Assembly: GCA_028698175.1 (NCBI GenBank)
Contig: JAQVDU010000001.1
Coordinates: forward strand, 1-58,987
Source of the DNA: a bacterium
Lineage (GTDB): Bacteria; Hydrothermota; 32-111
Length of the DNA stretch: 58,987 bases
Reading direction: 5' to 3'
The notes under the pieces are model-generated. The model was not told the DNA's origin and made no database searches. It was given only the letters and a program-made list of their open reading frames with translations. Below, piece by piece: positions 5,548 to 6,803 of this stretch. Position numbers and translations under genes: made by a program. Positions within the stretch are counted from its first letter, which is position 1; each line of letters begins with the position of its first letter.

Positions 5548-5575
5548 TTGACAAAAGACTCATTTTAAGTAAAAT
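5548..5575 (+). promoter_or_regulatory. Sigma70-like promoter of the HEPN cassette (TTGACA 5548-5553, 16-nt spacer, TAAAAT 5570-5575)
   Basis: The GGGGCTTGACAAAAG block is conserved at 7151-7165 and 8838-8852. Confidence 0.6.
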
Positions 5576-5608
5576 TATTAAAATAGATGAAAGAGGTAAA
5601 ATAGAGAA

Positions 5609-6031
5609 ATGAATTTTCTTAAACAAAAGGCAGATGCTAATAAAAAAGTTGCTGAATGGTGTGAAATAAATTGTTATTATGATGCAGCTGTCAATAGATT
5701 ATATTATTTTCTATTTCAGAATATAAAATATTATATCATGACAAATCAACTTGAAAAGGAATATAAGCTATTTGCAGCCTCTGAAAAAGCGAAATCCGTA
5801 TATAGCACACATAAAATTACTTATAATTTTATGTGCACAATATGTAAACAACAATCAAAAAATGCTGATGATTTAAAAGATTTCCACAATTTGAGGATGC
5901 TAATTAATCAAAGAAATTGTTCTGATTACGAAAATGACGTTCCTATTGTTGGTTCGGTGAACTATGAAAACCAATTTAAATCAAAGTATAGATTAGTTGA
6001 AAATGTTCTAAAGAAAATCAACATTTTGTGA
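5609..6031 (+). CDS. HEPN-domain protein (putative toxin)
   Basis: YYDAAVNRLYYFLFQ.. / ..STHK.. / ..LINQRNCSDYEN follows the helical HEPN pattern (A..a.YYa, S-x-H, R-x3-sDY). Confidence 0.6.
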   Translation: MNFLKQKADANKKVAEWCEINCYYDAAVNRLYYFLFQNIKYYIMTNQLEKEYKLFAASEKAKSVYSTHKITYNFMCTICKQQSKNADDLKDFHNLRMLINQRNCSDYENDVPIVGSVNYENQFKSKYRLVENVLKKINIL

Positions 6032-6038
6032 GGATATT

Positions 6039-6380
6039 ATGAAAGAGAAGCTATTAGAAATTAAGTCAAAACTTGAGAAAATGTATCCAACTGTGCATTT
6101 CGATTATTTTTATGATGAGAAAGATACTTTTCATGAAATATGGTATGACAATGCTGAAATGGATAAGGATAAGAGCTTTTCGGATAGTATTGGTAAATTT
6201 GTCAAAGAATTATTTGCTTTAGAATTCTACGATTTTTATATAGGATTTGATTATCTAAAAACTCAACAACTAATGGTTGATAAAAGTATTTTGCCAATAG
6301 AATATAATGCAAATAGAAAGCGAAAAACATATAGAGATTTCACCAACGATACTTTCGAACACATTTCAAAGGCGGCATAG
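6039..6380 (+). CDS. Hypothetical 113-aa protein (candidate antitoxin; no MNT motif)
   Basis: Lies between the HEPN and SecB-like genes with 7-9 nt gaps. No GS..DxD nucleotidyltransferase motif. Aromatic-rich C-terminal part. Confidence 0.5.
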   Translation: MKEKLLEIKSKLEKMYPTVHFDYFYDEKDTFHEIWYDNAEMDKDKSFSDSIGKFVKELFALEFYDFYIGFDYLKTQQLMVDKSILPIEYNANRKRKTYRDFTNDTFEHISKAA

Positions 6381-6389
6381 GTATTTTCA

Positions 6390-6803
6390 ATGGAAAAAAG
6401 TAAATTTCAATTTAAAAATCAGAAAATCGTCCAAGTAGAATTTTCTGTAAATAATAATTTTGATAGATCGCACAACGAAGTTCAATTAGAAATATCTATG
6501 AAAGAAAAGCATAAAAAAACATCAACATATCAAGCTTTAAGCGAATTGGAAATATCAGTTTTCAAAAAGGAATTTAATCCTCAAATTCCTTTTTACATTA
6601 GAATAATAGTTGAAGGCGAATTTAAGTGGGAAGAAAATATAGATAATAGTGAACAACTATTGAAAATAAATGCACCTGCATTGTTATTGTCTTATGCAAG
6701 AAGTATGATTACACAGTTAACAGTTTTTGCAGGGTTTGAACCTTTGATAATACCATTGGTTGATTTTACAAAAAAACCTGATAATGAAACAATAAAATCG
6801 TAA
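6390..6803 (+). CDS. SecB-like chaperone
   Basis: Aligns to E. coli SecB landmarks: FQFKNQKIVQVEFSV ~ FQIQRIYTKDISFEA, and APALLLSYARSMITQLTVFAGFEPLIIPLVDF ~ [32 protein letters not shown]. Confidence 0.8.
   Translation: MEKSKFQFKNQKIVQVEFSVNNNFDRSHNEVQLEISMKEKHKKTSTYQALSELEISVFKKEFNPQIPFYIRIIVEGEFKWEENIDNSEQLLKINAPALLLSYARSMITQLTVFAGFEPLIIPLVDFTKKPDNETIKS

Follow-up and report, generated by a model that had tools for sequence, protein, structure and literature searches.

A HEPN-T protein, a partner of no known family and a SecB-like chaperone: a candidate toxin-antitoxin-chaperone module in a Hydrothermota contig

Introduction

Can a toxin of the HEPN superfamily be placed under the control of a SecB-like chaperone? 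This question is raised by three short genes at positions 5548-6803 of a 58,987-nt stretch of DNA (contig JAQVDU010000001.1 of the assembly GCA_028698175.1, a bacterium of the Hydrothermota lineage 32-111), which was analysed here as a whole and is called the window below. An initial annotation, made from the letters alone, had read these genes as a toxin-antitoxin-chaperone (TAC) module consisting of a HEPN toxin, an antitoxin outside the nucleotidyltransferase (MNT) class and a SecB-like chaperone. The computational follow-up supports this reading, since the first gene belongs to a HEPN family, the second has no MNT match and the trio is conserved. Based on sequence comparisons, we estimate at roughly three in four the probability that these genes form a tripartite TAC module built around a new toxin-antitoxin pair.

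TACs serve bacteria in stress response and in defence against phages; they form a small class of toxin-antitoxin and anti-phage modules whose mechanisms are well understood. The described units contain HigBA, MqsRA and HicAB pairs and two unclassified groups with antitoxins of the helix-turn-helix (HTH) type, and the order toxin, antitoxin, chaperone is conserved in them (PMC3581621). CmdTA, whose toxin is an ADP-ribosyltransferase, joined the known pairs in 2022 (PMC9519451; PMC11618068). The initial annotation correctly named HigBA, MqsRA and HicAB but left out CmdTA, known since 2022 (PMC9519451).

Organization of the three-gene module

The module comprises the following features:

5536-5608, + strand: promoter and 5′ leader of the trio, with 11 of 12 consensus positions, conserved in relatives
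5609-6031, + strand: gene 1, a 140-aa HEPN-T (PF05168/UPF0332-like) protein, predicted RNase toxin
6039-6380, + strand: gene 2, a 113-aa protein, predicted antitoxin
6390-6803, + strand: gene 3, a 137-aa SecB-like chaperone of the toxin-antitoxin-associated (SecB-TA/CmdC) type

The three open reading frames (ORFs) are co-directed and are separated by 7 nt (genes 1 and 2) and 9 nt (genes 2 and 3). Gene 1 is preceded, at a distance of 33 nt, by a sigma-70-like site that consists of a -35 box TTGACA (5548-5553), a 16-nt spacer and a -10 box TAAAAT (5570-5575). The leader also includes the block GGGGCTTGACAAAA at 5543-5556, which recurs at two neighbouring modules (see Genomic context). Before the trio in three related contigs (L001, L002 and L006), the promoter site recurs with the whole leader (5536-5608) in almost identical form, while the further flanks are unrelated; the promoter is therefore treated as part of the module. 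The expectation of one promoter ahead of three tightly spaced genes was thus borne out by the site itself, the short gaps and the conserved leader. Promoter-like sites are not enriched in the region as a whole (23 observed versus 15.8 ± 4.1 in shuffled sequences), and no terminator was predicted within the trio.

Conservation of the trio across lineages

A phmmer search with gene 1 against 1.84 billion cluster representatives returned 30 proteins at E ≤ 1e-3, namely the query's own cluster and 29 distant proteins, which are 29-40% identical to it, nearly all of them over most of their length. The contigs of ten distant gene 1 relatives were compared together with twelve metagenome loci found by means of a conserved peptide. 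Hidden Markov models of the three families were made before the twelve metagenome loci were fetched and were then run on all ORFs of all loci.

The order gene 1, gene 2, SecB-like gene was found without exception in every locus with enough downstream DNA. The complete trio is present in 15 lineages (the window, L009, L012, L013, L016, L017, L021, L022, L023, L025, L027, L028, L029, L031 and L033); the L010 contig stops after a complete gene 2 without reaching a gene 3, and that of L030 breaks off within the chaperone gene. In the new metagenome loci gene 2 was detected at E = 1e-8 to 1e-25, and gene 3 was likewise recovered. Across the lineages the gaps within the trio range from -13 to +23 nt, and each of the three proteins averages about 30% pairwise identity. 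The divergence of gene 1 is correlated with that of gene 2 (r = 0.51, Mantel p ≤ 0.001), and the correlations with gene 3 are r = 0.29 for gene 1 and r = 0.27 for gene 2 (Mantel p about 0.02).

The surroundings of the trio vary. Signalling genes flank it in L001 and a PIN-domain gene in L012; in L013 it lies among AbiE genes, integrases and an IS91-type transposase, and in L033 among housekeeping genes on a 150-kb contig. Since the same order is kept between differing flanks, chance adjacency and a housekeeping role for gene 3 are therefore regarded as ruled out.

Among the close relatives (the window versus L001, L002 and L006; 95% nucleotide identity), gene 1 differs by 24 nonsynonymous and 9 synonymous codon changes, which cluster in residues 44-95. 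The corresponding values are 7 and 6 for gene 2 and 1 and 8 for gene 3, which is the most conserved member of the trio in distant pairs, too.

Relatives named in public records come from metagenome-assembled genomes of Bacteroidales and Candidatus Cloacimonadales, and most of the other loci have a GC content of 24-28%. With 30 clusters in 1.84 billion representatives, found only in uncultured and mostly AT-rich bacteria, the family is real and rare, and apparently undescribed. Word-indexed protein searches with all three genes gave near-identical relatives only, a scan of genome contigs gave a single locus identical to L002, and a first metagenome scan with gene 2 as a query gave nothing.

Gene 1 is a non-canonical HEPN-T variant

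Three stretches of gene 1 stand out by their conservation in the gene 1 family:

5696-5707, + strand: R30/Y32/Y33
5810-5812, + strand: H68
5912-5929, + strand: R102-N-C-S-D106-Y107

The HEPN model PF05168 is matched by 21 of 31 family members (best E = 2.3e-6), and one member is labelled 'UPF0332 family' in IMG. The family profile also matches the PDB entries 9xbd/9xbc, annotated as 'HEPN domain-containing protein', with E-values between 1.3e-6 and 3.4e-5 and alignments of about 110 positions; for 9xbd, E was 2.5e-6 when the profile contained 31 sequences and 1.3e-6 when it contained 37. All three family motifs reappear in the 9xbd alignment, as SR.YY, sH and RN.sDY. The strings AVNRLYY, STHK and QRNCSDYE, pointed out in the initial annotation as HEPN hallmarks, are real and coincide exactly with the three motifs conserved across the family.

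The conserved residues of gene 1 are K7, N11, A27, R30, Y32, Y33, Q37, H68, R102, D106 and Y107, to which the family consensus adds N103. Seven of them (R30, Y32, Y33, H68, R102, D106 and Y107) are invariant or nearly so in 37 sequences at about 30% identity. In the HEPN-T family (PF05168) an aspartate stands in place of the conserved histidine in several cases, and a family of the AF0298 type lacks the motif histidine but has a second strongly conserved histidine N-terminal to the motif, proposed as an alternative active site (Anantharaman et al., PMC3710099). As R102 has no motif histidine and a conserved H68 lies upstream, gene 1 is a non-canonical HEPN-T variant with the residue pattern of the AF0298/UPF0332 type. 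RNase activity of such a variant is plausible.

Single-sequence searches of the PDB with genes 1 and 3 gave no matches. PADLOC 2023 holds no matching model for gene 1 or gene 2 (PD-T4-9 A and B included), and NCBIfam holds none for gene 1. Matches of the gene 1 profile to poly-ubiquitin were rejected as spurious, being sums of individually non-significant matches to the ubiquitin string 'GRTLSDYNI'.

Gene 2 has a conserved core and a degron-like end

The predicted antitoxin can be divided into two parts:

6039-6248, + strand: residues 1-70, a conserved core domain without a known family, predicted to bind the toxin
6249-6380, + strand: residues 71-113, a probably disordered tail with aromatic and basic residues, predicted chaperone-addiction segment and ClpX degron

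Sixteen lineages share a homologous core of about 70 aa with the conserved elements YP.L..Y.Y..D...EIWHN, DK.F and IYN.Y..Y. Neither single sequences nor the family, with 9 or 16 members, matched Pfam, NCBIfam, PADLOC, PHROG or PDB sequences. A nucleotidyltransferase motif had been reported as missing from this protein, and this holds for the family: among 16 homologues there was no Pfam match to a nucleotidyltransferase at E ≤ 1, and the alignment contains no G-S...DxD motif. In an AlphaFold2 model built from a two-sequence alignment, residues 1-60 form an alpha-beta-beta-alpha-alpha arrangement of moderate confidence (block-mean predicted local distance difference test (pLDDT) values of 55-76), and pLDDT is below 50 from residue 70 onward in this low-confidence model.

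In the seven lineages for which it was measured, the tail is between 31 and 89 aa long, and each of these tails has scattered aromatic residues. Tails could not be aligned between lineages, and no conserved chaperone-addiction (ChAD) motif could be defined across them. In the window, residues 88-106 (EYNANRKRKTYRDFTNDTF) include 4 aromatic and 5 basic residues in 19, which is the composition preferred by SecB (PMC6377645). The initial annotation had taken FYDFYIGFDY for the C-terminal region; these are residues 63-72 and form the last conserved element of the core, so that the chaperone-addiction segment had been placed in the wrong stretch and the terminal Ala-Ala overlooked.

All gene 2 homologues end either in Ala-Ala (15 lineages) or in Val-Ala (2 lineages), and the endings include KAA, ALAA, WAA, IAA and QAA. 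In the window gene 2 ends in Lys-Ala-Ala directly before the stop codon, with the Ala-Ala codons at 6372-6377. Five homologues end in N-x-x-[YF]-x-L-A-A, for example NDNYALAA, NQDYALAA and NDNFALAA, which closely resembles ENYALAA, the end of the Escherichia coli ssrA tag. No tmRNA gene was found in the window with which the tail could be compared. The window and the first 20 loci contain 134 mechanically called ORFs of at least 80 aa. Ala-Ala stands at the end of ten of these, each of them a gene 2 homologue, and of none of the other 124, at an alanine frequency of 5.5%.

A database call of gene 2 in L009 (607-1113, 168 aa), which reads through two TGA codons, was rejected as probably an artefact of the caller's choice of genetic code, because the TGA after ...NALAA lies 7 nt before the chaperone start, as in the other loci.

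Terminal degrons of this kind have been studied in other TACs. The chaperone-addiction region of Mycobacterium tuberculosis HigA1 carries a Val-Ala ClpX degron at its end together with the chaperone-binding site (PMC8165232), and the toxicity of CmdTA is lost when Ala-Ala of CmdA is changed to Asp-Asp or when clpX or clpP is deleted (bioRxiv 10.1101/2024.02.24.581848). A terminal degron is not universal, as E. coli HigA is ClpXP-independent (bioRxiv 10.1101/2024.02.24.581848). By analogy, the constant Ala-Ala/Val-Ala ends support the view that gene 2 bears the same ClpX degrons as those proven for CmdA and HigA1 and is a labile, guarded antitoxin.

Gene 3 is a SecB homologue of the toxin-antitoxin-associated type

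Gene 3 scored 38 bits against the Pfam SecB model PF02556 (cut-off 26), which bears out its proposed SecB-like nature, and matched the PADLOC model PD-T4-9_C (CmdC) at E = 1.3e-11. The profile of the gene 3 family matches the sequences of the SecB structures 1fx3 (E = 3e-9) and 1qyn. The scores against the NCBIfam equivalogs of housekeeping SecB reached at best 42 bits versus cut-offs of 102.8-244 (NF004392, 42 versus 143 bits; TIGR00809, 32 versus 102.8 bits). Judged by these profiles, gene 3 is a SecB homologue of the toxin-antitoxin-associated type and not an ordinary export SecB, and the possibility named at the outset as fatal to the TAC reading, a simple housekeeping SecB, is contradicted by scores so far below the equivalog cut-offs.

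Proposed mechanism and alternative explanations

From these features, we infer the following switch. The single promoter would transcribe all three genes. Gene 1 would act as the toxin, most likely a metal-independent RNase in which R102 and the upstream H68 replace the histidine of the canonical Rx4-6H motif. The core of gene 2 (about 70 aa) would bind the HEPN protein and block it. The variable tail of gene 2 would serve as the chaperone-addiction segment, and its terminal Ala-Ala as an ssrA-like ClpX degron. A tetramer of the SecB-like gene 3 product is predicted to wrap the tail, hiding it from ClpXP and from aggregation. If a phage protein or unfolded clients titrated the chaperone away, ClpXP would destroy the antitoxin, and the freed HEPN toxin would halt growth. 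That all parts hold jointly, with a histidine-less HEPN-T protein as a true RNase toxin, a new antitoxin fold acting by direct binding and an ssrA-mimicking tail (N-Y-A-L-A-A) guarded by a SecB-like chaperone and firing on its displacement, seems to us an even bet.

Several results weigh against this interpretation. The HEPN profile search is positive for the family (21 of 31 members with PF05168, and 9xbd), but the window protein alone matched PF05168 at E = 0.0017 over residues 2-49 only, with 18.9 bits versus the 22-bit cut-off. The histidine of the canonical Rx4-6H motif is absent: the invariant R102 is followed by N-C-S-D-Y, of which N103 is polar, and positions +4 and +5 are occupied by D106 and Y107. 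RNase activity of a histidine-less HEPN-T variant is a published hypothesis (PMC3710099). The AlphaFold2 models, both from two-sequence alignments, are poor. That of gene 1 is all-helical with pLDDT 47 and a predicted template modelling score of 0.46, and it gave no meaningful match in Foldseek; that of gene 2 has an overall pLDDT of 54, and all of its Foldseek matches are non-significant (E > 0.4). The autoregulation usual for antitoxins is not evident, as no inverted repeat was found in the trio promoter region and no DNA-binding domain is recognisable in gene 2. Two scans of viral contigs and a tblastn search against plasmids and phages yielded no family member. Finally, gene 1 seems to be the fastest-evolving member of the trio, which could reflect diversifying selection or relaxed constraint.

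The same switch could operate around a HEPN protein that is not a nuclease toxin, either because it is a non-catalytic RNA-binding or regulatory protein or because the module is non-toxic. The lack of a histidine 4-6 residues after R102 and the sub-threshold Pfam score of the window protein fit this explanation, as does the view that HEPN domains without the motif may act non-catalytically (PMC3710099). On the other hand, R30, Y32, Y33, H68, R102, D106 and Y107 are near-invariant at about 30% identity, as in an active site, and a catalytic role has been proposed for the upstream histidine in the AF0298-type family, as an alternative to the motif histidine (PMC3710099). A degron-tagged partner with a chaperone also corresponds to the logic of toxin control, and we consider a non-nuclease HEPN protein unlikely. 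Alternatively, the trio could be a derived HEPN-MNT (type VII) system, in which gene 2 is a degenerate minimal nucleotidyltransferase that still neutralises the HEPN protein, whether as an enzyme or as a binding partner, and the SecB-like gene was added later. The conserved Y107 adjoins the arginine motif and is reminiscent of the tyrosine AMPylated by MNT in HEPN-MNT systems. HEPN-T families are classically linked to MNT genes (PMC3710099), and the Foldseek matches of gene 2 include the MNT chains 7ae9_F, 7ae2_B and 1ylq_A, non-significant with probabilities of 0.16-0.28 and template modelling scores of 0.3-0.46. Against this, none of the 16 gene 2 homologues matches a nucleotidyltransferase family at E ≤ 1, the profile search of the PDB was empty, the G-S...DxD motif is missing and the structural matches, all at E > 0.4, come from a low-confidence model; such a derivation is quite improbable.

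Two further explanations concern the roles within the trio. Gene 3 does match Pfam SecB and the sequences of SecB crystal structures, as an ordinary protein-export SecB standing by chance beside two small genes would. Its best score of 42 bits against cut-offs of 102.8-244, the match to the CmdC model, the second SecB-like gene 1.4 kb away behind an MqsA gene, the position in a low-GC island and the gene order kept in at least 15 lineages with different flanks make this explanation hardly credible. The roles of the first two genes might also be reversed, so that gene 2, which has no known fold, is toxic and the HEPN protein is its inhibitor. In every characterised TAC, however, the component with a degron, a disordered tail and chaperone protection is the antitoxin; moreover, the order toxin, antitoxin, chaperone is conserved (PMC3581621) and HEPN domains are established toxins (PMC3710099). 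We regard a reversal as scarcely to be expected.

Genomic context

The trio is located in a low-GC island (about 400-9400) at the left end of the contig, where the GC content is 27-33% versus 41-45% for the rest. All genes with a family match or an assignment between 662 and 9391 are on the + strand. Besides the trio, the following features were recognised in the island and at its right border:

1688-2626, + strand: DUF4238 gene
2875-4406, + strand: zinc-ribbon gene, then a gene for an Mrr-like nuclease
7174-7551, + strand: unassigned 125-aa ORF in the toxin position of the MqsA-SecB module
7548-8207, + strand: MqsA-family antitoxin gene, 219 aa with an extension of about 85 aa (TIGR03830, E = 9.4e-27)
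8200-8634, + strand: second SecB-like gene (SecB, 46 bits; PD-T4-9_C, E = 3.8e-20)
8896-9391, + strand: RHH-ParE pair
9715-10947, - strand: gene for a 410-aa protein that combines LVIVD repeats with a C-terminal sorting domain for type IX secretion, at the start of the part with normal GC content

Judging by its gene content, the island looks like a defence or toxin-antitoxin island. By its type IX sorting domain, the 410-aa protein beyond the right border places the host within the Bacteroidota/FCB group. The MqsA-SecB module lies 370 nt downstream of the trio, with its SecB-like gene 1.4 kb away; different alignments of this second chaperone with gene 3 give 23-28% identity. The initial annotation had described an MqsRA-type TAC at this place. 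The MqsA gene and the SecB-like gene are indeed present, but the ORF upstream of them has no match to MqsR and none in Pfam, NCBIfam, PADLOC or PDB sequences; by analogy with known modules, it may encode a second unclassified TAC toxin. The neighbouring MqsA homologue ends in ...VENG and not in Ala-Ala.

A promoter-like block, GGGGCTTGACAAAA or more generally GGGG(C/A)TTGACAAAA, precedes three consecutive toxin-antitoxin modules (5543-5556, 7150-7163 and 8838-8851). The general form GGGG(C/A)TTGACAAAA has 4 matches in the window versus 0.49 expected by chance. The common TTGACAAAA block may indicate either a shared promoter cassette or a shared regulator. GC-rich repeats of heptad periodicity, (GCCNTGA)n, occur at 5443-5458, 6980-7002, 7102-7124 and 9444-9466, and also upstream of the trio in L001 and L002; they are confined to the spacers of the island (7 matches versus 0.35 expected). 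Two stretches of 56 nt, 7077-7132 and 9419-9474, share 91% identity. A further motif, GATGGGGACGGTGC, occurs four times versus 0.19 expected: one copy follows each SecB-like gene (6922-6935 and 8665-8678), and a 22-nt tandem pair lies in reverse orientation where the contig begins (115-150, - strand). It may mark cassette boundaries.

No inverted repeats were found in the spacers between the toxin-antitoxin modules (5378-9391); the (GCCNTGA)n repeats are therefore not attC-like. The idea of an integron cassette array was rejected, as the spacers have no inverted repeats and the 410-aa ORF at 9715-10947 encodes a secreted LVIVD protein of the type IX secretion system and no integrase.

Significance and comparison with known systems

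In the literature searched, a HEPN-based TAC would add a fifth pair to HigBA, MqsRA, HicAB and CmdTA, with a toxin from a different superfamily, and the trio brings in an antitoxin domain without known relatives. The terminal Ala-Ala/Val-Ala ClpX degron appears to be a recurrent design feature, here on an antitoxin without sequence relation to the known families. Toxicity on removal of the chaperone would provide a simple genetic read-out for whether histidine-less HEPN proteins of the AF0298/UPF0332 type are nucleases. If the interpretation is true, the large UPF0332 group of HEPN proteins, uncharacterised so far, would thereby gain its first functional assay, and HEPN toxins would prove controllable in the manner of type II and TAC systems. 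The rarity of the family and its uncultured, AT-rich hosts probably explain why it went unnoticed. No link between HEPN and SecB was found in the literature searched, which lacks most subscription journals, so that a prior description is possible; the survey of the HEPN superfamily (PMC3710099) makes no mention of SecB.

With the HEPN-MNT systems of type VII (Shewanella SO_3166/SO_3165 and the Aphanizomenon HEPN/MNT pair), the trio shares a toxin of the HEPN superfamily and a small operon. The antitoxin there is a nucleotidyltransferase that AMPylates the toxin, whereas gene 2 has no nucleotidyltransferase motif and is accompanied by a SecB-like chaperone. The toxins of these systems carry RX4HXY, and gene 1 has RNxSDY with an upstream histidine instead. 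In the latter respect it resembles the AF0298/UPF0332-type HEPN-T protein (PDB 2hsb) and 9xbd/9xbc, which likewise have the motif arginine without the motif histidine and a conserved upstream histidine. The identity to the AF0298 type is low, and 2hsb was not retrieved by the profile, so that this relation rests on the literature description.

Among the TACs, those of the MqsRAC and HicAB types resemble the trio in having a SecB-like chaperone gene after an antitoxin with a C-terminal extension and differ in their toxin and antitoxin families. The M. tuberculosis system HigB1-HigA1-SecB(TA) (Rv1955-Rv1957) has the same architecture, and its Val-Ala end is also found in two lineages of the trio. 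Its toxin, however, is a ribosome-dependent RNase of the RelE/HigB type, and HigA is a DNA-binding protein of the HTH type; no such domain is recognisable in gene 2.

The likeness to CmdTAC (PD-T4-9), the anti-phage system of E. coli, extends to more features. The order of toxin, antitoxin and SecB-like chaperone is the same, and CmdA, too, stands outside the classical families and has a small N-terminal part, a long unstructured tail and an Ala-Ala ClpX degron. CmdT, in contrast, is an mRNA ADP-ribosyltransferase and gene 1 a HEPN-T protein; the anti-phage activity of CmdTAC is proven, that of the trio conjectural. By its testable features, the trio sides with the TACs and not with the HEPN-MNT systems: the architecture and control logic are known ones, and the toxin superfamily and the antitoxin domain are new to them. 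It extends what is known of TACs in a solid and testable way and does not amount to a new principle.

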